A stretch of 64,000 nucleotides of DNA, taken from the NCBI GenBank assembly GCA_038228695.1, contig JBBRPA010000007.1, positions 8,263-72,262 on the forward strand. Direction: 5' to 3'. Numbering within the stretch: the stretch's first letter is position 1; each line of letters opens with the position of its first letter. Positions 1-40,503 of this stretch are shown here, in pieces. The position numbers and the translations under genes are program-made. The notes beneath the pieces are model-generated. The model was not told where the DNA came from and did no database searches. It saw only the letters and a program-made list of their open reading frames with translations. This stretch comes from Chthoniobacterales bacterium (GTDB lineage: Bacteria > Verrucomicrobiota > Verrucomicrobiia > Chthoniobacterales > DASVRZ01).

Positions 1-273
1 TTCATCATTGAAAACGTCATTGCTGAAGCTGCCGGAGAAGGCACCGAGGTAAGTGCCGGACCAGAAGAGGAGGACGCAGAAGAGCGAAATGAGCCAGCCG
101 GGAAGCGCTTTGTTGAGGCCACCGTAGCCGGGCTCGCCTTTTTCGCGACCGACCGCGCTGTGCAGCCGCATGACATCGGCGGATTCATCGTAGTCCATTT
201 TACCTTCCATTTCGGCCTTGGGATATTTCTGCGGGATGAGGAAGTCAGGTAATTTGCTGGTCGGCTCGTTCAT
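1..273 (-). CDS. CcoP-like membrane-anchored protein, N-terminal part only (gene runs off the left edge)
   Basis: I translated the minus strand from the ATG at 273..271: MNEPTSKLPDFLIPQKYPKAEMEGKMDYDESADVMRLHSAVGREKGEPGYGGLNKALPGWLISLFCVLLFWSGTYLGAFSG... The frame stays open to position 1. The LPxW motif followed by a TM helix resembles the FixP/CcoP N-terminal domain. The gene starts 19 nt downstream of the ccoO-like gene on the same strand. No haem motif lies in the visible part. Confidence 0.45.
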   Translation of the reverse strand, partial: MNEPTSKLPDFLIPQKYPKAEMEGKMDYDESADVMRLHSAVGREKGEPGYGGLNKALPGWLISLFCVLLFWSGTYLGAFSGSFSNDVFNDE

Positions 274-291
274 GGCTGGTCGGCGGCGAAA

Positions 292-978
292 TTATTTAGC
301 GGGAGCCGGGGCCGCCGCAGGAGCAGCGCCTTTCATTTCCGGCACATCGTGATTTTTGTTGAGCGAAAGGAGGTAGCCAACGAGCGCTTCGGCCTCGGGG
401 CTGGGGACGATTTCATAGCCCGCAGCGGCCGTGTAGGGCTCGGGCAGGTCGAGGGCTTTGACGGAGCGTTCGCCTTTGATTTTCTTCGTGTCGAAAAGAT
501 ACGAGAACGACGGCATGTTCGACTTGGGATGAATGATGCGCGGGTTGAAGAGATGGACGTAATGCCAGGTGGCGTTTTTGCCCCGGGCAGCGACGGAAGT
601 GAGGTCGGCGTCACCGGTTAGAGCGAGGTCGCGCGCGCCAACGCTGCTGAGGTCGGGTCCGGCCCGGAGGGAGCCGAGGAAAACGGCGTCTTCGTAAATA
701 TAATCGCGAGCGACGGATTGGCGGGTGCCCCATTTCCGCTCGATATCGGCACCCATGTAGGAAGCGCGAACGTCTTGGGTGTGGCAGGAAACGCAGCCGT
801 TGGCGGCGTAAACGGCGCGGCCCTGTTGAGCGAGGCCGGAGATGTTATACGGATAAGACTCGTTGGTGTCGGGATCGACGACGGGGCCCAAGCGAGCGAG
901 GCTGGCATAAGGGATGCCGACCTGAACGATCCAGCCGAGGAAAAAGGCACCGAGGATGCCCGGGAAAAAGTTTTTCAT
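292..978 (-). CDS. ccoO: cbb3-type cytochrome c oxidase subunit II (CcoO/FixO)-like monohaem cytochrome c
   Basis: 228 aa with an N-terminal TM helix. It has a single CxxCH (GCVSCH) and a Met-ligand context (SNMPSF). Family motifs are present: GRAVY..GC..CHTQ.VR, RAGPDLS.VG and WHYVHLFNPR. It lies 3 nt downstream of the ccoN-like gene. Confidence 0.85.
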   Translation of the reverse strand: MKNFFPGILGAFFLGWIVQVGIPYASLARLGPVVDPDTNESYPYNISGLAQQGRAVYAANGCVSCHTQDVRASYMGADIERKWGTRQSVARDYIYEDAVFLGSLRAGPDLSSVGARDLALTGDADLTSVAARGKNATWHYVHLFNPRIIHPKSNMPSFSYLFDTKKIKGERSVKALDLPEPYTAAAGYEIVPSPEAEALVGYLLSLNKNHDVPEMKGAAPAAAPAPAK

Positions 979-980
979 GG

Positions 981-2471
981 TTAGTGCGCCTCCTCTCCGT
1001 GGGGCGAAGCGATGTAGGTGGGTTCCTCACTGATCTGGCCGAGGCGAAGGATCATGAGCAAATAGTGCAGGGCAAAGACGAGATGCCCAAAGAGCAGCAT
1101 GAGGCCGCCGATGATCGCGCCGCGCAGGAGGGGCAGGGTGGATTGAGCGACGGTGGCATTGTCGATCTGGGCGTGGGACCAGTCCTTACCTTGGAAGAGG
1201 CCGGCGATGGTCAGGACCAGAATGGTCAGGCCGATGCCATAAGCGACGCCCCAGAAGTGGAATTTGATTAGCGTGGAGGAGACCCATTCGCGACCGACAA
1301 TGCGAGGCAAGATGAAGTAAATCGCGCCGAACATGATGAACGAGTAGAAGGCGTAAAGAACGAAGTGCGACTGGGCTTGCGTGACATAAGTCAAACCCGT
1401 CTGCGCGGCAACGGAGCGCAGGGAGAGAATGATCGCAGTTACGGAAGAACCGGTGAACGCCATCGCACCGACCACGGTGAAGCGGAGGGTCGGGCTGAAG
1501 TGCATCATTTCATGCGAGCCAACGATGGTGAGGTGATGATTGACCGCGATGGTGGCGACCGGGATGATCATCAGGGCAGTGGCGACGATGTTCAGGGTAA
1601 CGAGCCAGACCGGGATGGGTCCGCCGTTATAGCGTTGGAGGCCGCCCCAACCGGCGAGGAAAGCGAACGACCAGAAGCCGAGATAGGCGAGGTAATAGCT
1701 GTGGATGGGTTTGCCGGTGACCTTCGGAATGATGTAGAAGGCAACGCCGAGGGCGAGAGCGGTAAACCAATAGTGGGTGAGGCCGTTGATGAACCAGGCG
1801 TTATTGATCGCGATGATCACGCCATGGACCCAAGGGAGAGAGGTAAAAATGTTACCTGCGAGAAGGGTCCAAGCCATCCAGACGAAAGCGGCGACGATGT
1901 AGGCTTGAGAGATGAAACCGGTGCCTTCGAGGCGTTTGAAATAGAGGCCAATGACCCAGACGCCGATGATGGCGAACCCACCCATCATGGTGAGCTGCGA
2001 CCAGAGTGGGAGTTCGAGGTATTCTAGGGAACGCCCGGCGCCGAGATGGAGGGCGACGATGCCGCCGAAGAGGCCACCGTTCCAGATGAGGGTGCCGATG
2101 ATGACGGAAAACGGGGAAACGAGCGGGACGCGGCAGAGGCGAACCATCAGCCAAAGGGCGACGCCGAGGCCGACGTTGGTAGCCCAGCCGTAGGTGAACA
2201 TGGCGGTGGCGATCGGCTTGAGGCGGCCGAAGGTCAGGAAACTGAAGCCAGAAAGGAAGTCCGGATGGAGCAGTTTGACGCTGAGGGCGAGGTTGATAAA
2301 ACTCCACGCGACGAGCCAGAGAATGCCCATGCCGAAGAGGAGAGAGGTCGGTCCGGAGGCGGATTGATCGAGCTCGACGCGGGCTCGCATGTCCGCAGCA
2401 CTGACCTTCGGATAGGAGGGGAGTGTTTTCGGAGCGGTTTCGGGACCGTCAATGGCGATACTGGTACTCAT
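981..2471 (-). CDS. ccoN: cbb3-type haem-copper oxidase subunit I (CcoN)-like polytopic membrane protein with an atypical ligand set
   Basis: 496 aa and about 12 TM helices. Anchor motifs match CcoN: FGRLKP, SLEYLELP, FYIIPKVTGKPIHSY, IYFILPRIVGRE and KFHFWG. It is adjacent to ccoO. Most canonical His ligand positions are substituted (see findings). Confidence 0.75.
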   Translation of the reverse strand: MSTSIAIDGPETAPKTLPSYPKVSAADMRARVELDQSASGPTSLLFGMGILWLVAWSFINLALSVKLLHPDFLSGFSFLTFGRLKPIATAMFTYGWATNVGLGVALWLMVRLCRVPLVSPFSVIIGTLIWNGGLFGGIVALHLGAGRSLEYLELPLWSQLTMMGGFAIIGVWVIGLYFKRLEGTGFISQAYIVAAFVWMAWTLLAGNIFTSLPWVHGVIIAINNAWFINGLTHYWFTALALGVAFYIIPKVTGKPIHSYYLAYLGFWSFAFLAGWGGLQRYNGGPIPVWLVTLNIVATALMIIPVATIAVNHHLTIVGSHEMMHFSPTLRFTVVGAMAFTGSSVTAIILSLRSVAAQTGLTYVTQAQSHFVLYAFYSFIMFGAIYFILPRIVGREWVSSTLIKFHFWGVAYGIGLTILVLTIAGLFQGKDWSHAQIDNATVAQSTLPLLRGAIIGGLMLLFGHLVFALHYLLMILRLGQISEEPTYIASPHGEEAH

Positions 2472-2848
2472 GGTTTGGCGGCGGAAGGTGAGGCGGCGGG
2501 CGCTGGAGCCGGAGCGGCAGGAGCTGGGGTGGCCACGGGATAGGCGGCGTGTGGTTTGATCGCGGAAAGATCGGTCACCGTCAGGTTGACGGCTTCGGAG
2601 ACGGGCAGTTGATAGACGCCTTTGGCCTGGTCGAGAACGGCGTATTCGGAGGTCTTCTTGGTGTCCTCTTCGTGGAGTTTTTTGAGGTTCGCGTAGCGTT
2701 TGGCGACGCGGTCGGTGTCGTAGGTATTGGTGCCCCGGGTGAGGAAAAGGATCAGCGCAAGCAGGGCGCCGGCGGATAAGAAAACGAGCAAGACCCGGAA
2801 GGCGGTAATCACGCCGGGTTTTTGATCAGATAATTCGGAAGAGACCAT
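2468..2848 (-). CDS. hypothetical single-pass membrane protein with Pro/Ala-rich C-terminus (ACIII/oxidase operon member)
   Basis: 126 aa with one TM helix (AFRVLLVFLSAGALLALILFL). Its stop overlaps the ccoN start as ATGA (2468-2471), which suggests translational coupling. It starts 15 nt downstream of actF. Confidence 0.55.
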   Translation of the reverse strand: MVSSELSDQKPGVITAFRVLLVFLSAGALLALILFLTRGTNTYDTDRVAKRYANLKKLHEEDTKKTSEYAVLDQAKGVYQLPVSEAVNLTVTDLSAIKPHAAYPVATPAPAAPAPAPAASPSAAKP

Positions 2849-2862
2849 GGTGATACGAAAGG

Positions 2863-4098
2863 TTAGTTGGTCAGTTTGAGAGATTCGAGGAGGCGCGGAT
2901 CGCGGGAGGGGAAGAGACCGCGTTTGCCGACTTCATAGAGGAAGGCAACGACGAGAAAACAACCGATCGCGATGGGGCAGATGAGATCGAGAATGTGCGG
3001 TTCGAATCCGGCCACGTGGATGTTTGGCAGAACGACGATGTAGAGATCGAGGAAGTGCATGCACAGAATCCAGATGGCGATGCCGCTGAGGAGGTTCGGA
3101 ATTTTTTTCACGAACCGGAACAGAAGCATGAGGAAGGGGATGAAGAAATGTCCGATAACGAGGAAGATGTTCAGCGTGTTCCAGCTTTCGGTGTTCCGAA
3201 TGAGGAAATATTCGGTTTCCTCAGGGATGTTTGCGTACCAGATGAGCATGTATTGGGAGAAGCCGATGTAGGCCCAGAAGATGGAGAAAACGAGGAGGAA
3301 TTTCCCCATGATGTGGTAGTGCTCCATGGTAACGACTTTTTGCAGATAACCCAGTTTGCGGAGACCGGTGATGACGAGAATAAGAACGGCCATCGAGCTG
3401 AGAGCGGAGCCGGCGAAAATATAAACGCCCCACATCGTGGAGTACCATTTGTAATTGAGGGCCATGATCCAATCGATGCCGGCGAAGGTGATTGAGAGGG
3501 CAAAGAACGGGAGGGCGCGGTAGGATTTGGTCCGCATCTTCAAGCTGTGCTGGATGTCGCCCGAGGCATCCTGCGCGGTGGAATGGCTGCGGAACGTGCG
3601 GGCAAAAAAGGTGAAGAAGGCGAAGTAAAAAACGGTGCGAATCCAGAAAAGCGGAAATTTGATTCCGGCAATGACCGGGTAAAAATACCAAGTCTTAGAA
3701 GCAAAAACGGCGTCTTTGGCGGGATCGACACTGATCCATTCCCAAATCGTGGTGCGAAAGAAAATAAGCGGTAGGAAAAAGACCGCGAGATACGGCATGA
3801 GAGAGGCGAGATTTTCCATCTGACGGCGAACGGTAACGGACCAAGCGGCATCGGTGGCGTGATGCAGGATGACCCAGAAAAGGGAGCCGGCGAGGATGGT
3901 GAAGAAGAAGAGGAAGGCAAAGAGCCAAGAGAAGGCGAACTGCTTGGCGAGCAACTCGTCATGGCCAGCCCGGAAGCCGTAGATCGCGGCAATGAGCAAG
4001 GCAGCGAGACCGGTCAGAGTGACGGAAAAGCCGAGGCGGCTGGTGGTTTTGGAGTCGAATTGCTCCGGTTTCGGTAGGGTAATAGAATGATCGCTCAC
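2863..4098 (-). CDS. actF: Alternative Complex III subunit ActF (NrfD-like membrane subunit 2)
   Basis: 411-aa polytopic membrane protein. It is the last gene of an actABCDEF-ordered cluster and overlaps actE as ATGA. Its size and position match ActF. Confidence 0.75.
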   Translation of the reverse strand: MSDHSITLPKPEQFDSKTTSRLGFSVTLTGLAALLIAAIYGFRAGHDELLAKQFAFSWLFAFLFFFTILAGSLFWVILHHATDAAWSVTVRRQMENLASLMPYLAVFFLPLIFFRTTIWEWISVDPAKDAVFASKTWYFYPVIAGIKFPLFWIRTVFYFAFFTFFARTFRSHSTAQDASGDIQHSLKMRTKSYRALPFFALSITFAGIDWIMALNYKWYSTMWGVYIFAGSALSSMAVLILVITGLRKLGYLQKVVTMEHYHIMGKFLLVFSIFWAYIGFSQYMLIWYANIPEETEYFLIRNTESWNTLNIFLVIGHFFIPFLMLLFRFVKKIPNLLSGIAIWILCMHFLDLYIVVLPNIHVAGFEPHILDLICPIAIGCFLVVAFLYEVGKRGLFPSRDPRLLESLKLTN

Positions 4099-4754
4099 TT
4101 GGCCTCCAATTTGGCTAAGACGTCAGCAGGGACATCGGATTTGGTCGCGTTCTGAGCGCGTTGCAGGGCGCGGATGTAGGCCACGATGGCCCAACGATCT
4201 TCGCGGGTGATTTTATCGCCATAGGGATACATGGTGTTTTTCCCGTGGGTGATGGTGTTGTAAATTTCGCCGTCGGCCATGACGCGGATCCGCTCCTGAT
4301 GGTAACTGGGCACGCCAACGATGCCGTATTGGGTGGTGATGCCGTTGCCCGCGCCGGATGCGCCGTGGCAGGGAACGCAGTTGATGGCATAGCGTTGCTG
4401 ACCGCGCACGAGTAGTTTTTGATCGACCGGAAGCGGCATCCCAGTGCCCCAGCTTTCGCCCATTTTACCGGTGTCGATGTAGTCATCGCCTTGGGTGTAG
4501 CCTTTGTAAAAATGATCGGCCTGACCGTTTGCGGTGGCTTCATTGTAGCCGAACGGAATGGTGCCTGCGACGGGCGTTCGCTCGACCCGACCGTCAGCGA
4601 AAAATTCACTGGTCTTCTGCGGCTTATATTTCGCCTGACGATCCATGTCGGGGAAAATTTCCGTGGGCGGCTTGCGGGATTTCGAGCCGCGGAATCCGGC
4701 CGCGGCGAGCACGCCGACTCCCACGAGCAAACAAATGAGAAAAAAGTAACGCAT
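4095..4754 (-). CDS. actE: Alternative Complex III subunit ActE (monohaem cytochrome c)
   Basis: 219 aa with a signal/anchor peptide and a single CxxCH (CVPCH). The C-terminal class-I cytochrome c context includes DRWAIVAYIRALQ. Its position between actD and actF fits ActE. Confidence 0.8.
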   Translation of the reverse strand: MRYFFLICLLVGVGVLAAAGFRGSKSRKPPTEIFPDMDRQAKYKPQKTSEFFADGRVERTPVAGTIPFGYNEATANGQADHFYKGYTQGDDYIDTGKMGESWGTGMPLPVDQKLLVRGQQRYAINCVPCHGASGAGNGITTQYGIVGVPSYHQERIRVMADGEIYNTITHGKNTMYPYGDKITREDRWAIVAYIRALQRAQNATKSDVPADVLAKLEAK

Positions 4755-4760
4755 GATCGT

Positions 4761-5315
4761 TTATTCGTGAATCAGGGTAATGTCTTTCGCGCCCAAATCG
4801 GAGAGCAATTCGGAGGTGCCTTTTTCGGTGAATTTTGGGTCAGCCGCCTCGATGACCATGATGAAACCATCGTCGCTGAAACGCCCAAAGCCGTCCCAGT
4901 TGAAAACAGGATGATTCCAGCGCGGCATACCATTGAGGAGAAACATTCCGATCACCGTGGTGAAAGCGGAGAAAAGAATGGTTAGCTCAAACATGATCGG
5001 GAAAAACGCCGGCACAGAGAAAAGCCCGAACGGTTTGCCATGGACGATGAGTGGATACAGAAAGGTGGACGGAATGAACTCCAGACACATGGCGGTGATG
5101 AAACCGGTCACACCACCAACGAAAACGATTTTGCCGAGAATGGAATGACCGAGGCCCATGGCGGCGTCCATGCCGTGGACCGGATAGGGCGTGTGGACAT
5201 CCCAGCGGCGAAAGCCTTTGTCGCGGACTTTTTTCGCGGCCTCGTAAATCTCGGCCGCGCTCGAAAAGCGGGCGCCGAGTCCGAAAAGTTTTTTGCGTTC
5301 AGCGATGGCAGCCAT
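4761..5315 (-). CDS. actD: Alternative Complex III subunit ActD (DUF3341-type membrane protein)
   Basis: 184 aa with two central TM helices. It sits between actC and actE. The N-terminal FSSAAEIYEAAKKVRDKGF segment is typical of ActD as I remember the family. Confidence 0.7.
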   Translation of the reverse strand: MAAIAERKKLFGLGARFSSAAEIYEAAKKVRDKGFRRWDVHTPYPVHGMDAAMGLGHSILGKIVFVGGVTGFITAMCLEFIPSTFLYPLIVHGKPFGLFSVPAFFPIMFELTILFSAFTTVIGMFLLNGMPRWNHPVFNWDGFGRFSDDGFIMVIEAADPKFTEKGTSELLSDLGAKDITLIHE

Positions 5316-5317
5316 AA

Positions 5318-6811
5318 TTAAGCGTGCGCCTCCTCGGTGGTGGAGGTGTGAGCCCCGTGGTCGTCATGTTTCGGATGGTAATGCGGATCGGCTTCGGGCA
5401 GCACGCCTTTGACCTCGGAGATCGCAATCATCGGCAGGAAGCGGATGAAGAGGAGGAAAAGGGTCATGAACAAACCGAAGGTGCCAGCGAAGGTCCAGAT
5501 GTCCACCCACGTCGGATGGAACATGCCCCACGAGGACGGAATGAAATCGCGATGGATGGAAGTAACGATAATGACAAATCGTTCGAACCACATCCCGGCG
5601 TTGACGCACATGCAGACCGCGAAAACCACGTAGATATTGTAACGCAATTTGGGGAACCAGAAAATCTGGGGCGAGATCACGTTGAGCGACATCATTGCCC
5701 AGTAAGCCCACCAATATGGGGCAACGGGGACATTGTAGAGCTTGCTGAAAATGTATGGGTCGGCCATGCGGTTGCGCAGGAATAACCACGTCTCGTAAGG
5801 ATTGCCGGAGTAAGCCGCGGTGAAAAACTCCATGCAGTAGGCGTAGCCGACGATGGTGCCGGTGAGCAGGATGATTTTGCACATCACATCGACGTGCTTC
5901 GGAGTGATCAGATCATGCAACCCGTAAATCGCACGGGCCGGGAGCATGAGCGTCAGCACCATAGCAAAACCGCCGAAAATAGCTCCCGCGACGAAATACG
6001 GTGGGAAGATCGTGGTATGCCAGCCAGGAATGACCGAGGTGGCGAAGTCGAAGGACACGACCGAGTGAACGGAGAGCACGAGCGGGGTCGAGATGCCCGC
6101 GAGAATGAGGTAGGCAAGTTCGTAATGGCGCCATTGGCGATTGCCGCCGCGCCAGCCAAGGGCGAGGAAACCGTAGGCGAACCGGGCCACTTTACTGGTG
6201 GCGCGATCGCGTAAGGTCGCGAGATCAGGAATGAGTCCGATAAACCAGAACATGACCGAAACCGTGAAATAGGTGGAAACCGCAAAAACGTCCCAAAGGA
6301 GGGGCGAACGGAAGTTCGGCCAGATCGCGTTAGCGTTCGGAATCGGAGCAAGGAACCAGACCATCCAAATACGGCCCACGTGAATGCCGGGGAAAATACC
6401 GGCGCAAACCACCGCGAAAAGGGTCATCGCCTCAGCGGCGCGGTTGATCGAGGTGCGCCATTTCTGACGGGTCAGAAAGAGAACCGCGGAAATGAGCGTG
6501 CCGGCGTGACCGATACCGATCCAGAAGACGAAATTGGTAATGTCCCAAGCCCAGCCGACGGGGTGGTTCAAGCCCCAAGTGCCGACACCGGTGGAAATCA
6601 TATAACCGATGCAGGCGAAACAAATCAGGGCGAGCGTTCCGGAAATGGCGAGGGCGATCAGCCACCAGACGGGGGTCGGCCCCTCGACAATTCCGCAGAT
6701 GCGTTGGGTGACCCAAGACATCGAGCGGTTGTTGAGAACGAGAGGAATGCGGGGGAGCGGTTCCTCGGGTGTGGGGTTGGGCCCCATTACAAGCATATCG
6801 GATGTTGCCAT
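5318..6811 (-). CDS. actC: Alternative Complex III subunit ActC (NrfD/PsrC-like quinol-interacting membrane subunit)
   Basis: 497-aa polytopic protein with about 10 TM helices. Its start overlaps the actB stop (TAATG at 6809-6813). Its position and size match ActC. Confidence 0.8.
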
Positions 6812-9800
6812 TAGTGGTGTGCTCCTGCGGGTTCGGAAGTTTTCGCTTTTGCGTTCGGATCGCGGGCCGGACCCGTGCTTCCGGGTGCGCCTTCCCCGTG
6901 GAGCGATTCGTATTCGTCGGGATAAATGTCGGCCACTTTGTCGGCTCCGGGCATTTTCGGATTCGGGTTGCGAATGCGAGCCAGATAACTGGTGCGGGTG
7001 CGGATGTTGAGATACTCGAGCAACCGATAGCGGCGGGGATTGTCCTGCAGTTTTGCGAGAGCGCTGTCCGGGTCGTTTAAGTCGCCGAAGGTGATCGCCT
7101 CAGCCGGGCAGGCCTGTTGGCAAGCGGACTTGATCGTATCAGTCGGGATCTTGAGTTTGTCCGAACCGCCCGCTTTGACGCGTGACGTGATGCGATGCTC
7201 CTCGATGCGTTGGAGGCAATAGGTGCATTTCTCCATCACGCCGCGAATGCGGACGGTGACGTTCGGATTCTTCTGCATCTTGGTCAACTCCTCGGTGCCT
7301 TTCGGAGCGAGAGGTCCGTAATAGAGTCCGCTTGCTTCGGGCAGCGGGCCGACCTTGATTTTTTCGATTGGGCGCTCGTTGTAGTTGAAGAAATTGAAAC
7401 GGCGCACTTTGAACGGGCAATTGTTCGCGCAATAACGCGTGCCGATGCAGCGGTTGTAGGCCATCACGTTGAGGCCGTCTTCGCTGTGAACCGTGGCGTT
7501 GACTGGGCAAACCGTCTCGCAAGGGGCGTTCTCACATTGCTGACAACCCACCGGTTGCATGACCATTTCCGGTTCGGTCTCATCGTGTTCGTCGCCTGAT
7601 GTAGCGAAATAACGATCGATTCGCAGCCAGTGCATTTCGCGGGAATTGTGGACCTGCTCCTTGCCGACAATCGGAATGTTATTCTCCGCTTGGCAGGCGA
7701 TGGTGCAGGCGCTGCAACCGGTGCACGTGTTTAGGTCGATGACCATGCCCCATTGCTCGGGCATGCCGAGTTTCGGAGATTTATAGAGGGAAATATTCGG
7801 CGGAATGTGCCCGTCGATGTGCATCGTCTTGGCAAATGCGGGCTCGGCTTCGAATTTCGCCTTGGTTCCCTCGCGCACGAGGGCGCGTCCCTCCATTTGA
7901 TGATGCTCTTGGGTGAAAGCGAGAAGATGTTGACCTTGGGATTTGACGATTTTCGCGCCGTTAGCGAAACCGGAATCGGTGGAAGTGAGCAGCGCAAAGG
8001 CGTTGAAACCAACCCCAGTGCCGACTTTTCCGGCGGTGCCCGTAGCGTGACCGTAGCCTCGGGCGAGCGTGATCGAATCATCGGCGTGGCCGGGCGAAAC
8101 GAGTACGGGCACTTCGAGGGCGCGGCCTCCGATCGTTAGCTTAACGAGGTCGTTGTCGTTCAGACCGTGGGCCTTAGCGAATTTTCGGGAAATCAGCGCC
8201 GCGTTATCCCAAGTGAGCTTCGAGACCGGGTCGGGCAACTCATGGAGCCAGCCGTTGTCGATGCTGTTGCCGTCAGGGATTTTGTAGTCGGGCGGGAAAA
8301 CAACCTCGATCACTTTCGGATCGGGCAGCGAAATCGGGGCGTCAAAACGGCGGAAGGCGAGATTCGCCGCAGCGGGTTTTCCCTCGGCGTAACCGGTGCG
8401 GAGGAAGTTCGACCAGGTCGTGCCTTGGCCCTGTTTTTCGAAGGTGGCTTTAACCAGCTCCGCGCCGACAGGGACGGGTGAACCAGCAAGAAGCGTGAGC
8501 ACGTCGTTGACCGAGAGACCGCCGAAAAGCGGGAGAATCATTGGCTGGACGGGCACGTAGGTGCCATCCGGGCTGAAGGCGTCGTCCCAACTCTCAAGGA
8601 AATGGGTGCCGGGCACGTGCCATTTGGCAGCTTGGGCGGTCGCGTCGGTCCGCAATCCGACGTGAACGACATCGGGAACAGATTTGAGCAGTTCGCCGAA
8701 TTTTAAGTCTGCTGGCGCAGTGTAAACCGGGTCGGATTCAAGAATGAAAAGCGTGGAGACCAACTTATCTTGGATCGCACGGGTCAAGTCGGTGAGGGTT
8801 CCGGCCGCGGACGCCGCGGTGGCCACTCCGCGAAGGGTGGTGCCGATATTGCCGAGGGCTTGGTTAATAGCGAAACCGAGTGCCTGCACTTCGACCGGCT
8901 GGCGCGGACCGACAATGACGAGGCTGCGTCCTTGGGCAGAGAGAAGGTCGGCGGCGCATTCCGCAATCCATTTCGGATCCACCCCGGGAATCTCCGGAGC
9001 CAGCGTCATGTTCATCCCGAGTTTGGCCGCGAGGGAAACGAGGAAAGCAACAGCTTGGCTGGCCTTCAGGCGCAAGCGGTGATCCGCCATGCCGCCCGTG
9101 ATCGTGTAGCGGTTTTCGACCGCATAGAGGCGGTTCATTTTTTCTTTCGGATCGCGTCGTTTGGAAAATTGCCGAGTCGGCTCCGTCCCAACCGCGTCGA
9201 TCCCAAGGAAATCGGAATCCACCGCGACGACGACGTCTGCTTTCTCAAAATCGTAACTCAGCGCCACGCCTTCGCCGAAGCTCTTCGCCACAGCCTGATC
9301 GAGGACACTGCCGGTCGGATCGTAAACGTGGAATTTTGCGGCGGGATAAATCGCGAGGACTTCTTTCTTAAGGCGCTCCCGAGTCGGCGAATGGCTGACA
9401 TCGGAAAGAAAGGCGAGACCTTCGCCCTTTTTCTCGGCGATTTTCGGGAGGAGATCCTTCAGGTAATTCTCGAAAGAAGCGCGGTCAGATTTTTTCCCGT
9501 TGGCGATAAAAAATTTCGAGCGGTCCGGGTTGTAAAGATCGAGAATGGTAGCCTGCGCTTGAAGATCGGTCGCGCCACTGCTCGCGGGATGAAGCGGGTT
9601 GCCCTCGATCTTGGTCGGACGACCGTCGTGGGTCGTGACCATTAGGGGCATGGCACCGCCGCGGCGGGGCATCGCACTGGCATAAAAGAGAGCTTTCCCG
9701 GGAACGCTCCACTCGACGCTCTTGGAAAGCGCGGCAAATTGGATCTCCGGACGGCGGCAACCACTAAATCCGAAGCCGGCCAGGGCGAGCGACGCTCCCA

Positions 9801-9975
9801 TGATCTGCATGAAACTGCGACGGCTCAGACCATCGATTTCCATCTCCGCGGCACCTTGCGGAAATTCCCGCTCGAGCCAGCCGCGAAATTCCGGTGTGTC
9901 AGCCAGTTCCCCGACGTTCCGCCAATACTTCCGGCCGGTCACGACCTCGGGTGGATGCTGTAAAATACGTTTCAT
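6811..9975 (-). CDS. actB: Alternative Complex III subunit ActB (molybdopterin-oxidoreductase-like domain fused to a 4Fe-4S ferredoxin domain)
   Basis: 1054 aa with a Tat-type signal ([19 protein letters not shown]). Fe-S cysteine clusters lie in the C-terminal third: [36 protein letters not shown] and CTYC. The size is typical of ActB. Confidence 0.9.
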
Positions 9976-9987
9976 GGACCTAAAAAA

Positions 9988-10650
9988 TTAACGGTGACAG
10001 CCGGAGCAGTTTTGCGGCGGGCGGATGGCCCATTCCTTGACGAGTTGGGTGCCCATTTCTACTTGGGCCTTTTGCGGATCTTTGCCTTCCGGCTTCCAAT
10101 CCAGATTGAAGACCTTATCGAGCGGACGGACAAATTTTTCGGGGTTGCGATGGCACTCGAGACACCAGCCCATGCTTTGCGGTTGATCGTGGTAAACGAC
10201 CTCCATGTTATTGATATTACCGTGGCAGCTGACACAACTGACGCCACGGTTCACGTGGACCGAGTGGTTGAAGTAAGCATAGTCCGGCGCGTAGTGAATG
10301 CGCACCCAGGGGAGCGGCTGACCGGTTTCCCAAGCGGTCTTGAGCGCGGCAAACTTCGGGTTATTTTTCTGCACCTGTGAGTGGCAGTTCATGCAAGTTT
10401 GCGCGGTCGGAATGTTGGAGTGGGCCGCCACTTCGACATTCGAGTGGCAATAGCGACAATCCATCCCGAGCTGGTTGACGTGAATGTCGTGCTGAAAAGG
10501 CACTGGCTGCACCGGTTGGTAGCCGACGCGGGTGTATTTCGGAGTGAAATAATACGCCACGCCGCCGGTAATGGCCGCTCCGAGAACAGCAACACAGACG
10601 AGAACTTTAAGAGGCAGCTGATTGGTCCAGCGCGGGAAAATATTGGCCAT
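9988..10650 (-). CDS. actA: Alternative Complex III subunit ActA (pentahaem cytochrome c)
   Basis: 220 aa with an N-terminal anchor. It carries five CxxCH motifs: CRYCH, CMNCH, CVSCH, CLECH and CSGCH. It is the first gene of the operon. Confidence 0.9.
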   Translation of the reverse strand: MANIFPRWTNQLPLKVLVCVAVLGAAITGGVAYYFTPKYTRVGYQPVQPVPFQHDIHVNQLGMDCRYCHSNVEVAAHSNIPTAQTCMNCHSQVQKNNPKFAALKTAWETGQPLPWVRIHYAPDYAYFNHSVHVNRGVSCVSCHGNINNMEVVYHDQPQSMGWCLECHRNPEKFVRPLDKVFNLDWKPEGKDPQKAQVEMGTQLVKEWAIRPPQNCSGCHR

Positions 10651-10965
10651 GGCTTATTGGAGCGCGATCACCCGAGGGCTGGTCAGGCGCGGCGTTTTAC
10701 AGACTGTGATCACGTTGGGTTGAGGCATTTTCGGGCTTGCGCAGCCACGGAAAAACACGGCCTCCGAGGAACTGCGAGGCCCAGAGATTATAAATCCTCT
10801 TTTCATTATCAATCAAAATTCTGCGTATTTTCAGCGTTTTTTTCGTTCGTTTCGCGTTGACCCGAAGAAAGTGGAAATTAAGCTATTATTAAAAATTCTA
10901 ATAGCAAACATATTTTGCGGCGAAACTGGACAAGCTTTCCAGTCAAGGCATCGTTGCGCCGCGCC

Positions 10966-11694
10966 ATGTCTCTGCCCTCCGAATCCATCCATCCTCTGCG
11001 GGCCGGGCTCATCGCCGCGCGCGCCACTTGGCTGCCCGGGCTGCTCGTTCAAGGGACGATGGTGGGGGTCGTATTGACTTATTATAAGGTCCCGCAGGCC
11101 CGCCCGGTTTTTGACCAGATTGCCCGGTGGAAATCGGAAGGGGGCGTGGCCTTTTCCATTGTCTCCGCCATGGTGGCCGGCGGGTTGGTGCCGGAAATTT
11201 TACGGGTCCTCTTCTTCCAATCTGGGCGCGCGACGGCACAAAACGGCCGCAACCTTGCCTTCACCCTCCCCTTTTGGGCGCTTCAGGGGCTCTGGGTCGA
11301 TTTCTTTTACCGCGGCCAAGCGGCTTGGTTCGGAAACAACCCGGCTCCATGGACGATCGCGAAAAAAGTCTGCGTGGACCAGTTTCTCTACAATCCTTTG
11401 GTCGCCGCTCCGTTTGGAATCACATTGTATGAATGGAAGAATCGCGGCTACCGCTGGTCGAGCGAGTTTCTTTCTTGGGCTTGGTATCGCGGGCGGATCA
11501 TCCCCGGGCTAGTCGCCACCTGGGCAGTCTGGATTCCGCTGGTTAGCGTGGTTTATTGTTTGCCCCAAACACTACAAATCCCGATTTTCTGTCTGGCACT
11601 GACCTTTTGGGTGACGCTCTTTACTTGGATGACAGAGATTCTCGCCAAAAAGAACCAGCAAGTGCCGAACGACGCAGCGCACCTCGCCCGATGA
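10966..11694 (+). CDS. Mpv17/PMP22-like integral membrane protein (tentative)
   Basis: I chose the ATG at 10966 (MSLPSE...). The ORF track starts at a TTG at 10915. It is a multi-TM protein, and the C-terminal W.WIP....Y.LP....IP.....FW pattern resembles the Mpv17/PMP22 family. Its stop overlaps the next gene's start as ATGA. Confidence 0.45.
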   Translation: MSLPSESIHPLRAGLIAARATWLPGLLVQGTMVGVVLTYYKVPQARPVFDQIARWKSEGGVAFSIVSAMVAGGLVPEILRVLFFQSGRATAQNGRNLAFTLPFWALQGLWVDFFYRGQAAWFGNNPAPWTIAKKVCVDQFLYNPLVAAPFGITLYEWKNRGYRWSSEFLSWAWYRGRIIPGLVATWAVWIPLVSVVYCLPQTLQIPIFCLALTFWVTLFTWMTEILAKKNQQVPNDAAHLAR

Positions 11695-12272
11695 TCGACC
11701 CGCTTTTAGTCATCACACAGACTCGGGAGTATCTTGCGCGCAACCCTCGGGAAGCCGAGCGGCTGGAGCCGTTCCGGATTTTCTTAGAAACGAACGCGCC
11801 AAAGCAGGTCATCTCCCGGAAGCATTTGGCTGGACACGTCACGACCAGCGGATTCCTCGTCAATGATAACGGCGAATCGCTTTTGCTCATTCATCACCGC
11901 AAGTTGGATCGTTTCCTCCAGCCCGGGGGCCACCTCGAGGACGACCCCACCCTGCTCGCCAGCGCGTTGCGGGAAATCCGCGAAGAGGTCGGTCTGCAGG
12001 AAGAGGCGCTCACCCTTTGCCAGCCGGACCATCTTCCCTGCGACATTGATCCCCACCGGATCCCGGCCCGGGGGGAACAACCGGAACACTGGCATTTCGA
12101 TTTCCGCTACCTCTTCCGGGTGCGACCTGGGGCGGAGATCGCCTGTCAAGCCGACGAGGTGGCAGGGGCGGACTGGTTCGGCTGGGAGAGCGAAGAGGTC
12201 CGCCAAATTCTGCCTGAACACGTGATCCGCCGGCTCCGGACCACTATTTGCGCCCAGACACCCGGCGTGTGA
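11691..12272 (+). CDS. NUDIX hydrolase
   Basis: A Nudix box is present: GGHLEDDPTLLASALREIREEVGL (GX5EX7REUXEEXGU). I chose the ATG at 11691 (MIDPLLV...), which overlaps the upstream stop. The 11556 start in the ORF track would overlap the upstream gene by 139 nt. Confidence 0.8.
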   Translation: MIDPLLVITQTREYLARNPREAERLEPFRIFLETNAPKQVISRKHLAGHVTTSGFLVNDNGESLLLIHHRKLDRFLQPGGHLEDDPTLLASALREIREEVGLQEEALTLCQPDHLPCDIDPHRIPARGEQPEHWHFDFRYLFRVRPGAEIACQADEVAGADWFGWESEEVRQILPEHVIRRLRTTICAQTPGV

Positions 12273-34965: not shown

Positions 34966-37900
34966 TCAAGCGAGCGTCTTCCGCAAATACGGAGCGATGC
35001 GGCTAGTCTTGTGACGGGCAATCTCCTCGGGCGTGCCGGTGGCAACGACTTCACCGCCCGCCGCGCCGGCTTCCGGGCCGATATCAACGACATAATCCGC
35101 CTCGGCGATGACATTCAAATTGTGTTCAATGACAATGACCGTGTGACCAACATCGACGAGGCGTTGAATGACTCCGAGCAACATTTCGACGTCGGCCATG
35201 TGAAGGCCAATCGTTGGTTCCTCAAGCAAATACAACGTGCTTTTCGCAACCCGCATTTTGCGAATCTTGTTGGTGTGATCGCGCGCTGCACCGAGGCGAA
35301 GTTCGGAAACGAGCTTGAGCCGCTGGGCCTCGCCACCGCTCAGAGTCGGACTGGGCTGCCCGAGTTTCAAATAGCCCAACCCGGTATCGACTAACAATTG
35401 TAGCGTTCGATGGATTTTCTGACTAGTCGAGAAGAATTCAGCCGCTTCCGCGATGGTCATGTTCATGACGTCGCCAATGTTTTTCCCGTTATATTCGACC
35501 TCGCGGGTTTGCGCGTTGTAACGGGTGCCGCCGCAATCCTCACACGGCACGTAGCTCGCGGGGAGGAAGTTCATTTCCATCTTGATCACTCCCTGGCCGG
35601 CACAGGCTTCGCAACGTCCACCCTCGGTGTTGAAAGAGAAACGGGTGTTGGTGTAACCGCGCATCCGCGACATCGGAAGCGATGCAAAAAGCAGGCGTAT
35701 CTCGTCGAAAACTTTAATGTAGGTCGCGGGAATCGAACGGGAAGTTTTACCAATGGGAGACTGATCCACCTCGTAAACCGCCTCGAGATGCTCCGCGCCT
35801 TTGAGCAAGGGATGATCCCCGTTTTTTCGGCGTTTCTTGCTCAGGGCGGCCTCCACCGCGGGTTTCAGCGCGGAGCGCATCAGGGTGCTCTTGCCCGATC
35901 CGGAAATCCCCGTAATTGCGGTCAGGCGTCCGATCGGAAAGCGGACGGTGATGTCCTTCAGATTGTTAACATCGGCCTCAATGAGCTGAAGCCACTGGAG
36001 TTTTTCCATCGGGCGCCGCGCACCCCGCAGGGGATGGCGCATGGGGTGTTTGAGATAGTGGCCGGTCCGAGAATTTTTGCAGGTCTTGATCTGGGCGAGA
36101 GTTCCCTGCGCGACAACCTCGCCGCCGTTCATCCCGGCCCCAGGACCAAGATCGACGATAACATCGGACCGTCGCATCGTTTCCTCGTCGTGCTCGACGA
36201 TGACGAGTGTGTTTCCCTTTGCCCGGAGGGCTTGGAGGGTGTCGAGCAAGGCGTCATTGTCGCGCGGGTGGAGTCCGATGGTGGGCTCATCGAGGACGTA
36301 AAGGACGCCGCGCAGATTGGAGCCAAGTTGGGCGGCCAATCGGATGCGTTGGCTTTCCCCGCCGCTGAGAGTTTTTGCGGAGCGATCCAGTGCTAGATAG
36401 CTGAGGCCAACATTTTGCATGAAACGCAACCGTTGCGTGATCTCGGGCAAAATATCGTCGGAAATAACGCGCTGATCTTTGGCAAAGCGCAATTCCCCAA
36501 TGGTTAGCAGGGAATCGCGCACGCTACCGTGGGCCAATCGGTCGATGGTTAGATCATTGACCCGAACGTGACGAGCGACCTCATTGAGTCGAGCTCCATG
36601 GCAAGCCGTGCACGGCTTGGCTTCCCCGGCCTCGATCCATTCGTGAGCGCGCTCCTCGGCCAGTTCCCGCTCGAGGACCGAGGCATTGTCATCGACCTTA
36701 ACTGAGGCGTGAAATATTTCACCAAACCCGTTGCAGGTCGCACACCAGCCGTGCGGAGAATTAAAGGAGAATAAACGCGGATCTAGTTCCTCAAACGCCC
36801 GCGCACATTTCGGGCAGGTCATCTCGGTGCTCAAAATGGTTTCGGTCCCATCGTGCAAAATTTTGGCGGTGCGTTTACCAACTTTCAGCGCACGCTCGAC
36901 CAGTGGGCGAATTTCGCTTTTTGCAACTTTGGCGAGATCCGCCACGACGACATCGATGGTGTGTTCCTTGAAGCGTTCGAGTTTTTGGAAGTTAGCCGAG
37001 GAGAGGAACTTTCCATCGACGAGCAGCATTTCAAATCCGTCCTTCGCAGCGGCGGCGGCAACGTCGGTGTGGAAACCTTTGCGCGCCTTGACCACCGTGG
37101 CGAGAAGCCAGGTCCTCTTTTTTCCCGCGAGTTTTTCCACCTGAGCGACGATTTTCTGGACGGTCTGACCCTCGACTGGAATGTCGCATTTTGGACAGTA
37201 TTGCGTCCCGAGTTTCGCAAAGAGCAGCCGAAGGAAATGATAGACCTCGGTCACGGTGGCCACGGTGGATTTCCCGCCACCCCGGGTGATCCGCTGCTCG
37301 ATCGCGACGCTGGGGGGCAACCCCTCGATGTGGTCCACGTCGGGTTTTTCCATCTGCCCGACAAACTGCCGTGCGTAGGGCGACATGCTATCGAGAAAAC
37401 GGCGCTGGCCCTCCGCGAAAAGGAGGTCAAAGGCGAGGGTAGATTTTCCGGAGCCGCTTAGTCCGGTGATCGTGATCATCTTTTCCCGAGGGAGCGTGAG
37501 GGTGAAATTTTTTAGGTTGTGCTCCCGAGCTCCATGGATGGTGATGCCGTTGGATTGGGGATTTTTGACTTTTGATTTCCGAATGGGATCCTCGGCGAGT
37601 CGGGTGCCGCCAAGCATCGCGGCGAGGTGACGACCCGTGTGCGATGCGGGGTTTTTCGCGACCTCCTCCGGCGTGCCCTCCGCAACCACCAGACCGCCCT
37701 CCGCGCCCGCCTCGGGGCCGAGATCGATGACGTGGTCGGCAGATTTGATCACCTCCAGATTATGCTCAATAACAATAAGGGTATTTCCTGAGTCCACCAG
37801 TTTTTGAAAGACAGCTAAGAGCAGTGAAACATCGTCGAAGTGCAGGCCGGTGGTTGGTTCGTCAAAGATCAGAAGGGCATTTTGATTGTGCCCAGATTTT

Positions 37901-40503
37901 TCGACGAGATGCCCAACGAGTTTCAGTCGCTGACTTTCTCCGCCACTGAGAACGTTGACCGGCTGCCCTAGTTTCAAATAGCCGAGACCCACACTTTCGA
38001 GGGTGCGAAAAGGTTCGATGATTTTTTTGTTTCCACCGCGCTTACCGAAGAATGTGAGCGCTTCGGTGACGGTCATTTCCAGCACATCGTGAATAGATTT
38101 GCCGTGCCAAGTGATCGCGAGGACGTGCGGCTGATAGCGTTTCCCCTCGCATTCGGAGCAGCGGATAAAGAGGTCGCTGAGAAACTGCATTTCCACTTTT
38201 TCAAATCCGATGCCGTTGCAACGCTGGCAACGACCGGTGCCGCTGTTGAAAGAGAAGGTGCTGGCGGTAAACCCAGCGGCGCGGGCCTCCGGACTTTCGG
38301 CAAATAGCTTCCGCAACTCATCGAAGACGCCGAGATAAACCGCCGGCGTTGAACGCGGGCTGCGAGCGAGCGGCGACTGATCGACCATCACCACCGTCCC
38401 AACGGAATGCGCTCCGGCGATGGCTTTGCACTGGCCGATAATCTCGCCAGTCGGCTCTCCTTTCAAACGGAGAAGGTTCTCATGCAAAACCGTGTGGACG
38501 AGAGTGGACTTTCCGCTGCCGGAGACTCCCGTGACGCAGGTAAGCAGGCCGAGCGGAATTTTTACGTCGATGTTGCGGAGATTGTTCTCGGTGGCACCCT
38601 GCACCGTGAGCCATTGGCCCGGTTTGCGGCGGCGAGCGGGAATGGCGATGGATTTTTTTCCGTAAAGATAGTCGCCGGTGAGCGATCTTTTTTCCCGGAT
38701 GAGTCCGGTCGGTTTTCCGGCAAAGACCAACTCGCCGCCTTCGTTACCCCGACCAGGCCCGATGTCCACTAGATAGTCAGCGGCGCGAATGACAGCTTCC
38801 TCATGCTCGACAACGAGCAGCGTGTTGCCTTTGTCGCGCAGTTGCTCCATCACGGAAATGAGCCGGCTAACGTCGCGGGGATGCAGTCCGACGGTCGGCT
38901 CGTCCATAACGAAGAGAGTGTTAACCAGAGAAGCGCCGAGACAGGTCGTTAGATTGACCCGCTCGACCTCGCCGCCAGAAAGGGTGCGGGTGCTACGATC
39001 AAGATCGAGATAACCGAGCCCGACTTGATCCAGATAGCGTAAGCGGTTGACCACCTCGCCGCGCACCATCGTTCCGGTCCGATCCGTTTCCGGAATCGAG
39101 AATGTCGCGATTAATTCGGCGAGTTCGCGCACCGGAATGCGGTTGAGCTGCGGAAGAGTGTGGCGTTTTTCCGCGGGATCAACGAGGTGATAGTTCAGCG
39201 TCGCGGGCTGGTAACGCCCCCCATGGCAATCGGGACATTCCGTGTAAGCGCGGTATCGGCTGAGAAAAACACGCACATGCATTTTGTAAGCGCGGGCCTC
39301 CATCCAGGAAAAAAATCCTCTCACGCCATACCAAAGATCATTCTGCCAAAGTTCTTCGCTGCCAACATCGAGGTCGCCCTCACCCTCGATAACCCACTTC
39401 TGATCGGAGGCGGGCAGTTCCGCAAAGGGTAGGTAAACATCGATGTCGTTCCGTTTGGCGTGCCGCATCAGGTCGGTCTGGCACTCGCGGGATTGTCCGC
39501 TTTGGAACGGCCGAACCACGCCCTCGGCGATGCTGAGCGATTTGTCCGGGAGCGCCCGGCTCAGATCGAGACCGATAGTGCGACCAAACCCCCGGCAAGT
39601 CGGACACGCGCCGAGCGGATTGTTAAACGAGAATAGCCCGGGAGTCGGCGGACGGATAATTTCGTCGCAATGCGCACAGTGCCAGCCTTTCGATTCGGGA
39701 ATTCGATGCGACGTGACTGGGTCGATCAGGGTGATCTTTCCCTTCCCGAAATTGAGCGCCGTCTCGATCGACTCCGTCAACCGCGATCCCGAGGAAGCCT
39801 CGATAGTGACACGGTCCTGAATCACATCGACGACGCCATGCAATGAGCCTAACGACGGCGGTTCGTCGGTCCGGTGAATCTGGCCATCGCGCCAGACGCG
39901 CAGGTAGCCTTGCGCGTTGAGAAACTGGAAAAAATCGGCTGGCGGCGTCTTCGCGGGAACGGGAATACCGAATGTGACTAAGAGGGTCTGACCGGCGTTT
40001 TCCCTTTGCAACTTCGCCGAGATCGACTGGGCTGTCTCGGGTCGGATCTCGCGGGCGCAGATCGGACAAAAGGCCCGGGCCAGCCTCGGAAAGAGCAACT
40101 TTAGGTAGTCATTAATCTCCGTCATCGTGCCAACCGTCGAGCGGGTGGTGCGGACACCATTTTTCTGCTCGATGGCAATCGCCGGAGGGATGCCGAGAAT
40201 CTCATCGACCCGCGGCTTGTCCATGCGGTCGAGAAACTGCCGGGTGTAGGGCGAGAAAGTCTCGACGTAACGTCGCTGGCCCTCGGCGTAAATAGTGTCG
40301 AAGGCGAGCGACGATTTTCCGGACCCGCTGGGGCCGGTGACGACGATCAGTTGGTTGAGCGGAAGATCAAGATCGATGCCCTTCAGATTATTCTGACGGA
40401 CATTCCGGATCTGGATGGCGTTAACGGACGGGCCAGCCGAAGCGATGCGAGGCACAGACATGGACCTATGAATACGTCTGACGGCGCATTCAGGACGGGC
40501 CAA
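34966..40503 (-). CDS. double-length UvrA-like excinuclease ABC subunit A (two complete UvrA units in tandem, four ABC ATPase modules)
   Basis: 1845 aa. There are four Walker A motifs ([36 protein letters not shown]) and four LSGGE signature motifs. Each half carries its own set of CxxC zinc modules. The second unit begins near [18 protein letters not shown] (about nt 37560). An alternative start is the ATG at 40461. Confidence 0.85.

Follow-up and report, generated by a model that had tools for sequence, protein, structure and literature searches.

The 64,000-nucleotide stretch of DNA analysed here (the window throughout) belongs to a Chthoniobacterales bacterium of the Verrucomicrobiota (contig JBBRPA010000007.1, positions 8,263 to 72,262) and carries on its minus strand, at 981..2471, a gene for a 496-residue homologue of CcoN, subunit I of cbb3-type cytochrome c oxidases. 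The protein is full length and lacks five of the six histidine ligands of the haem-copper centres as well as the cross-linked tyrosine. Its relatives form a large verrucomicrobial family with the same kind of loss, and the genes for alternative complex III (ACIII) lie directly upstream. We propose, with a probability of about 0.6, that the ancestor of this CcoN was a genuine cbb3 oxidase subunit linked to ACIII, that its redox centre was lost, and that the protein now serves as a redox-dead structural subunit holding c-type cytochromes on ACIII while O2 is reduced by a separate oxidase.

Fold and ligand positions of the window CcoN

The reading frame has no internal stop and matches the Pfam COX1 profile (PF00115) with an E-value of 9.8e-44 over profile positions 5-435 of 436. 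In phmmer, the CcoN of Pseudomonas stutzeri (3mk7_A) aligns with E 1.5e-22, and the other solved cbb3 CcoN chains also score about 1e-22. An AlphaFold2 model built with 61 family members (pLDDT 90, pTM 0.91) finds 3mk7_A as its best Foldseek match, with a TM-score of 0.85/0.91, followed by other cbb3 structures and then by nitric oxide reductases (NORs). An earlier note on this DNA, made from the letters alone, had already taken the protein for a homologue of cbb3 subunit I, and both the profile and the fold bear it out.

The ligands were mapped on the phmmer alignment to 3mk7_A, in which the ligand columns have high posterior probability and no insertions or deletions close by; four separate MAFFT alignments gave the same residue assignments. 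The low-spin haem b retains one of its two axial histidines: H60 is replaced by A88 (codon GCC, motif KPIATA), and H347 is kept as H369 (CAC, motif QSH). The proximal histidine of the high-spin haem b3, H345, is Q367 (CAG, in the same QSH motif). All three CuB ligands are replaced, H207 by N229 (AAC), with His233 four residues or one helical turn further on (GLTHYW), and H257 and H258 by Q279 (CAA) and R280 (CGC) in the motif GGLQRY. The cross-linked Y251 is A273 (GCC). The Asn, Gln, Arg and Gln codons of the window (AAC, CAA, CGC, CAG) each lie one nucleotide from a His codon. These are the very substitutions that the earlier note had counted out against the RPLHT, WWYGHNAVG, GPHHLHY and HVH motifs of P. 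stutzeri, and comparison with PF00115 and 3MK7 did not restore the six histidines. The protein is thereby confirmed as a full-length subunit I homologue that has kept a single His ligand out of six and has no cross-linked Tyr.

The losses extend beyond the cofactor sites. In the proton-input channel, S240, Y317, N333 and position 323 correspond to A262, F339, A355 and T345, and only T215 is kept, as T237. The signature of cNOR and qNOR, three His and a Glu for FeB with His-ligated haems b and b3, also fails, because the same His positions are replaced. The partner subunit CcoO, on the other hand, retains its haem c site: GCVSCH aligns with the GCVGCH of 3mk7_B and KSNMPSF with ESKMPSY, so that both CxxCH and the Met ligand are in place, as the earlier note had it. 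The equivalog cut-off of NCBIfam TIGR00780 (583 bits) was tried as a discriminator between working and degenerate proteins and rejected. The window protein scores 125 bits, degenerate homologues 109-163 and canonical verrucomicrobial ones 213-252, all below the cut-off, which does not discriminate in this phylum because its canonical CcoN proteins fail as well.

Ligand loss, operon context and selection across the family

What was seen in one protein recurs in each collection searched. Reading the positions in the order H60, H207, Y251, H257, H258, H345, H347, the canonical pattern HHYHHHH is found in 3 of the 120 closest database homologues (38-100% identity), all from Chthoniobacterales/Verrucomicrobia and annotated 'cbb3-type cytochrome c oxidase subunit I'; the other 117 are ligand-poor. 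An exhaustive HMMER search of 1.84 billion cluster representatives returned 901 matches at E <1e-10, and the 150 best matches include 134 full-length sequences, each representing a cluster at 50% identity, 6 of them canonical and 128 ligand-poor. The GTDB species representatives contain at least 558 loci that code for relatives. The top 80 of these are all from Verrucomicrobiota (Chthoniobacterales, Candidatus Udaeobacter, Chthoniobacter, 'Spartobacteria'), and 79 lack the ligands. The nearest genomes are metagenome-assembled genomes of Chthoniobacterales, with a protein 76% identical to that of the window at locus L007. A distant family (P0155 and ~115 relatives), 32% identical to the window protein, has no member with plausible ligands. 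On the evidence of these sequences, ligand loss is a trait of the whole family, not an error or a one-off.

The residues that took the place of the ligands differ between clades. The window clade reads A-N-A-Q-R-Q-H, the Udaeobacter type H-N-S-Q-R-Y-H/Y and the Chthoniobacter type Y-Q-x-V-R-Q-H, while the distant family has drifted to the small residues Ala, Gly, Ser and Thr, in patterns of the type AGGAAAS or SGGTSRN. Metagenome-assembled genomes of Chthoniobacter have the pattern YQAVRQH, and the residue at His233 of the window is Phe in the Udaeobacter type. In the close family, the replacing residues (Asn, Gln, Arg, Tyr) can each be reached from a His codon by a single nucleotide change. 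Comparing 120 canonical verrucomicrobial CcoN sequences column by column with 114 close and 116 distant degenerate ones, the columns specifically lost are the cofactor ligands, S240, T215, N254, N333, position 323, G211 and G344; a separate alignment shows a partial loss of Y317. This comparison yielded no gained conserved His, Met, Cys, Lys or Tyr column, and the only gains are R280, R352, R450 and a C-terminal His. The latter, His496 in the window (981-983), is shared by 86% of the close degenerate family, and most canonical relatives lack it.

Gene order is conserved too. Positions 1-10650 of the window form a single tightly packed operon on the minus strand, in which adjacent genes overlap by 4 nt or are separated by a few bases. 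The six act genes are all present, contiguous and in the same orientation as ccoN. They comprise actA (9988..10650), a multihaem cytochrome c subunit (Pfam Cytochrome_C7/c3); actB (6811..9975), a 1054-residue molybdopterin-like/FeS subunit assigned by Fer4 domains in its homologues and by conserved synteny; actC (5318..6811), the NrfD-like quinol-interacting membrane subunit (Pfam NrfD); actD (4761..5315; Pfam ActD PF11821, E 7e-59); actE (4095..4754), a monohaem cytochrome c subunit (Pfam Cytochrome_CBB3/Cytochrom_C); and an actF-like gene (2863..4098) for a 411-residue polytopic membrane subunit, which has no Pfam match and is named by position and operon conservation. Upstream of actA, at 10787..10816 on the same strand, TTGATT-18-TATAAT forms a promoter-like site, identified only by its match to the consensus. 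Between actF and ccoN, in canonical and degenerate operons alike, stands a gene for a 126-residue protein with a single transmembrane helix (p126, 2468..2848), which finds no match in Pfam, NCBIfam or the PDB; its tail is rich in Ala and Pro. It may represent an undescribed component of the ACIII-cbb3 module, whether a subunit or an assembly factor.

Downstream of ccoN, with a start that overlaps the ccoN stop by 4 nt, ccoO (292..978) encodes a 228-residue monohaem cytochrome c subunit with a transmembrane anchor (Pfam FixO, 76 bits). It is followed by a CcoP-like gene for a monohaem, membrane-anchored cytochrome c, of which the 5' part (91 codons, 1..273) lies in the window before the window start cuts it. 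The gene is complete in an independent assembly of the same contig (L001 6192-6926), encodes 244 residues in full and has a counterpart in nearly all related loci. CcoO itself varies: the window protein has a 17-residue insertion relative to P. stutzeri CcoO at residues ~119-135, LALTGDADLTSVAARGK, and Udaeobacter-type CcoO proteins are 281-340 residues long versus 205-209 in canonical ones. In eight loci, mostly from Chthoniobacter sp. (L031, L038, L042, L052, L056, L061, L082, L012), the gene after ccoO encodes a dihaem cytochrome c of 360-460 residues that replaces the 244-residue monohaem protein.

Wherever the contig of a related locus extends far enough, the distant family included, the genes run in the order actABCDEF, p126 homologue, ccoN, ccoO, cytochrome c. 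The haem c sites are retained almost throughout: CcoO keeps CxxCH in 86 of 86 loci and the downstream cytochrome c keeps its haem motif in 74 of 76. A gene for the FixS/CcoS protein follows the opposite course. CcoS is a factor required to mature cbb3 with its cofactors. Its gene stands immediately upstream of ccoN in all five canonical loci and is absent from almost all degenerate loci. The window lacks it as well: its p126 stop and ccoN start overlap, which leaves no space for such a gene. Twelve degenerate loci have only a remnant without a transmembrane helix, for example at L004 9816-10004. This remnant is a 62-residue open reading frame (ORF) between the p126 homologue and ccoN, which keeps the C-terminal VIFD.EEPVG..TD of FixS/CcoS and has lost the NGQF motif. 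The correlated loss of FixS/CcoS fits the loss of the cofactors.

Canonical relatives occupy the same operon. This group (P0021 and 119 others) has the pattern HHYHHHH in 117 of 120 sequences, and its CcoN is 41-42% identical to that of the window. Such ACIII-cbb3 operons, from Methylacidiphilales, Terrimicrobiaceae and others (PMC8498564), have a gene order identical to the degenerate one and differ in the intact ligands, in the FixS gene just upstream and in the aa3-type oxidase genes that follow the cbb3 genes directly in L089 (12940-18895, COX1/2/3 and CtaA), L090 (12884-18964, COX1/2/3, CtaA and SCO1) and L091 (12899-13738, COX2 only); together the two gene sets make a large respiratory supercluster. 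L091, from Chthoniobacterales, encodes a CcoN (10001-11473, P0496) that reads NWWFARNVLG where the canonical L090 reads NWWYGHNALG. The sole ligand replaced there is H207, by Arg, and a FixS-like ORF is still present, so the locus may represent an early stage, the first step, of ligand decay. Of the 53 degenerate loci whose downstream sequence spans 8 kb or more, 34 have an A-type COX1 gene 1.5-9.5 kb downstream.

The degenerate protein is under purifying selection. All 92 CcoN ORFs from the retrieved loci plus the window, including six canonical ones, are full length. The ratio of nonsynonymous to synonymous substitution rates (dN/dS, Nei-Gojobori) is 0.025-0.12 for degenerate CcoN in twelve close pairs, similar to ActC and ActF. 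Between the window and L007 it is 0.16 for CcoN, 0.06 for ActC, 0.065 for ActF and 0.11 for CcoO, at a dS of ~1.2 that is near saturation. When pairs of loci are matched for ActC divergence (0.70-0.73 identity), CcoN proteins share 0.61 identity in canonical pairs versus 0.45 in degenerate pairs, with the Act subunits unchanged. The lower CcoN identity at equal ActC divergence indicates that constraint is relaxed relative to a working oxidase, yet far from abolished, and degenerate CcoN evolves faster than its canonical verrucomicrobial relatives. A neighbour-joining tree of ActB, ActC, ActD and ActF (1,990 ungapped columns, 200 bootstraps) places the canonical L090 and L091 with the degenerate clades B and D (86%) and the canonical L089 with the distant degenerate L088 (100%), and gives 0% bootstrap to a single canonical clan and likewise to a single degenerate clan. 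If ccoN travelled with its operon, this topology implies that the ligands were lost independently at least three times.

Structural subunit or residual function

The favoured reading, a redox-dead structural subunit, would make CcoN a non-catalytic platform of twelve membrane helices. ACIII would oxidise menaquinol, and electrons would exit via the c-haems of ActA and ActE. They would reach both CcoO, at its haem c, and the 244-residue cytochrome c, the two being anchored on CcoN and serving as the electron-exit wire of ACIII. From there they would pass to a separate terminal oxidase, aa3-type in many relatives, bypassing any binuclear centre in CcoN. CcoN would then bind no haem b, haem b3 or CuB, a prediction drawn from the ligand positions. 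The case of Flavobacterium johnsoniae, with its ACIII-aa3 supercomplex, suggests by analogy that CcoN, CcoO and the cytochrome c would share one complex with ACIII. The pathway from ACIII through CcoO and cytochrome c to another oxidase is likewise something that we infer.

Three features make a scaffold the best fit. First, the fold is intact. Second, the protein is under purifying selection. Third, CcoO has kept its haem motif in all 86 loci. As expected of a pseudo-enzyme, the catalytic residues are gone, the ORF is intact and selection has kept it so over many species. The earlier note had argued that a protein of this kind, hard-wired into an ACIII operon, would not be a conventional O2 reductase, and the comparative data on ligands, FixS/CcoS and channel residues strongly support this. 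The note had left three functional options, of which the scaffold fares best and the other two, an unknown ligand set and a relic of a proton path, are disfavoured for reasons given below.

Several observations weigh against a purely structural role. Haem can bind through non-His ligands, and the window protein retains H369. In roughly half of the close family the two haem b ligands, H60 and H347, are both still in place. Separate clades share Asn, Gln and Arg at the three CuB positions, a recurrence that could point to a functional site and not just to mutational proximity. The dN/dS of Udaeobacter-type proteins is as low as that of ActC, more constraint than a passive anchor obviously needs. 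Finally, the loci of the window clade (L008, L009) have no adjacent aa3 genes, and the window itself offers no candidate electron acceptor, as a Pfam scan of 30 further ORFs of at least 220 residues and phmmer searches with aa3 queries found no other terminal oxidase in its 64 kb. The strong conservation of the Udaeobacter type, its kept haem b histidines and the recurrent Asn, Gln, Arg and Tyr give a residual haem or a repurposed function a low but real probability in that group.

These points bear most directly on the idea that CcoN still binds at least one haem and acts as an electron-transfer module or a new catalytic site, other than a haem-copper O2 reductase. The haem could be held by H369 and a non-canonical partner or, in Udaeobacter-type proteins, there could be a bis-His haem b and a Tyr-ligated haem facing Asn, Gln and Arg. 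Besides the retention of H369, 51 of the 80 GTDB loci keep H60 and H347 with a Tyr at the H345 position. Within the close family, conservation of the Asn, Gln and Arg that stand in for the CuB histidines is 79-91%, and the dN/dS values, at 0.03-0.07, are very low. The window protein, however, has both haem sites disrupted, with Ala at H60 and Gln at H345, and H369 gives way to Tyr or Gln inside its own clade. H60 and H347 have gone from sub-clades that branch among the Udaeobacter type (patterns QNSQRYY, HNSQRYY), the distant family has no candidate ligands at all in the same operon, the FixS/CcoS gene is lost, and Asn, Gln, Arg and Tyr are all one mutational step from His. We consider residual haem binding unlikely, although it survives better than the other alternatives.

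A little more doubtful is the claim that CcoN is a repurposed working part, either a proton, ion or conformational module driven by ACIII or, in the Udaeobacter-type H-N-S-Q-R-Y-H proteins, a new haem site that has no copper, with Tyr as a ligand and a pocket of Asn, Gln and Arg. If either form were true, ACIII with this CcoN, CcoO and the CcoP-like cytochrome would constitute a type of respiratory complex not recognised before, in the Verrucomicrobia that are most abundant in soil.

The first of these forms, taken alone, would be a redox-independent translocating or conformational-coupling module resembling the antiporter-like subunits of complex I. It draws on the purifying selection acting on a protein of twelve transmembrane helices, on a buried basic residue that recurs in the former active site (Arg at 258 in the close family, Arg or Lys at 345 in the distant one) and on the debate over proton pumping by ACIII itself (PMC8498564). 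The channel residues speak against it, as they do against the proton-path relic of the earlier note: S240 has become Ala in every one of the 114 close degenerate sequences of the comparison, from which canonical members were excluded; N333 is Ala, Y317 is Phe and position 323 is Thr, Val or Leu. In addition, the column comparison revealed no new conserved acidic or basic intramembrane chain, and no coupling mechanism is known. Such a module seems improbable.

It is very improbable that CcoN remains an O2 or NO reductase with an unconventional, unrecognised ligand set, even though databases label it cbb3 subunit I and the haem-copper oxidase superfamily has variant active sites, such as that of gNOR (PMC11214002). 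Five of the six histidines and the Tyr are gone and the maturation gene is lost; the absence of any new conserved ligand column, together with replacements that vary freely among clades, argues against substitute ligands. An artefact (sequencing or assembly error, a decaying pseudogene or misalignment), which the metagenomic source of the assembly makes possible only a priori, is effectively refuted by an identical protein in an independent Logan assembly, the same pattern in homologues 73-79% identical, intact ORFs in all 92 loci, dN/dS well under 1 and the agreement of the one phmmer and four MAFFT alignments with the match of model to structure.

Neighbouring genes, known systems and significance

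Two further reading frames of the window deserve mention. A 259-residue ORF without a Pfam match (10915-11694, plus strand) is oriented divergently to the act operon. It runs into the beginning of an ORF for a NUDIX gene (11556-12272), so that its true start is uncertain. On the minus strand, 34966-40503 encodes 1845 residues with two UvrA-like units (UvrA_inter twice, UvrA_DNA-bind and several ABC P-loops), which looks like a fused or duplicated UvrA paralogue.

With the CcoN of the P. stutzeri cbb3 oxidase (3MK7/5DJQ) the window protein shares the fold of twelve transmembrane helices, the company of a CcoO with haem c and a further membrane cytochrome c, and the motifs FGRL.P, the W at the WWYGHN site, Y..PK, HFW, P.LRF and GRE. 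It differs in the replaced histidines, Tyr and several channel residues, in the missing FixS/CcoS and in its ACIII operon. Clusters of ACIII and cbb3 genes in Verrucomicrobia are known and have been treated as genuine high-affinity oxidases (PMC8498564, PMC6688271). In F. johnsoniae, ACIII is physically coupled to an active A-type oxidase in a supercomplex (Sun et al. 2018, as cited in PMC8498564). The likeness lies in the genetic coupling of ACIII to a haem-copper oxidase, for which no soluble carrier would be needed. The oxidase is active there, whereas here the attached subunit has lost its redox ligands and its physical association is inferred.

Cofactor loss with retention of the fold has precedents in the superfamily. 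One active-site His is an Asp in gNOR, qNOR's N-terminal domain lacks the haem c motif, and subunit II of both gNOR and bo3 lacks CuA (PMC11214002). These losses touch one ligand or an accessory subunit of an enzyme that is still catalytic, while the family described here has lost nearly all ligands of the catalytic subunit. According to the latest survey of the superfamily, the active-site His are completely conserved in all haem-copper oxidase families other than gNOR (PMC11214002); the present family would be a large exception to that statement, within subunit I itself. We found no description of a ligand-less CcoN family in the full-text literature searched, although a prior mention may exist under the 'unknown group' label of a haem-copper oxidase tree (Muntyan et al. 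2015). Judged by sequence, the protein is clearly descended from the C family and is best described as a pseudo-catalytic subunit I in which the features that define cbb3 (ligands, Tyr and channel) have failed.

Ex-catalytic subunits are familiar from other respiratory complexes. The NuoD/49-kDa subunit of complex I is a homologue of the [NiFe]-hydrogenase large subunit without the Ni-Fe cysteines, and the core proteins of the bc1 complex are related to the processing peptidase. In these cases too a metal site was lost and the subunit was retained by selection within a respiratory complex. They belong to other folds and complexes and are ancient and fixed, whereas canonical and degenerate CcoN coexist in one phylum.

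In NCBI and in IMG alike, these proteins go by the name 'cbb3-type cytochrome c oxidase subunit I'. The ccoN gene is widely used as a marker of high-affinity, microaerobic respiration, and hundreds of species whose CcoN lacks an O2-reducing centre, Candidatus Udaeobacter and other Chthoniobacterales among them, would inflate ccoN-based inferences for soils. Mis-annotation in this large and ecologically prominent family is systematic. The family illustrates how catalytic subunits turn structural, and the repeated loss of ligands from a protein that stays under selection offers a natural experiment on the non-catalytic contribution of the haem-copper oxidase scaffold to a respiratory supercomplex. 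It also provides a concrete, testable handle on how ACIII hands over its electrons.

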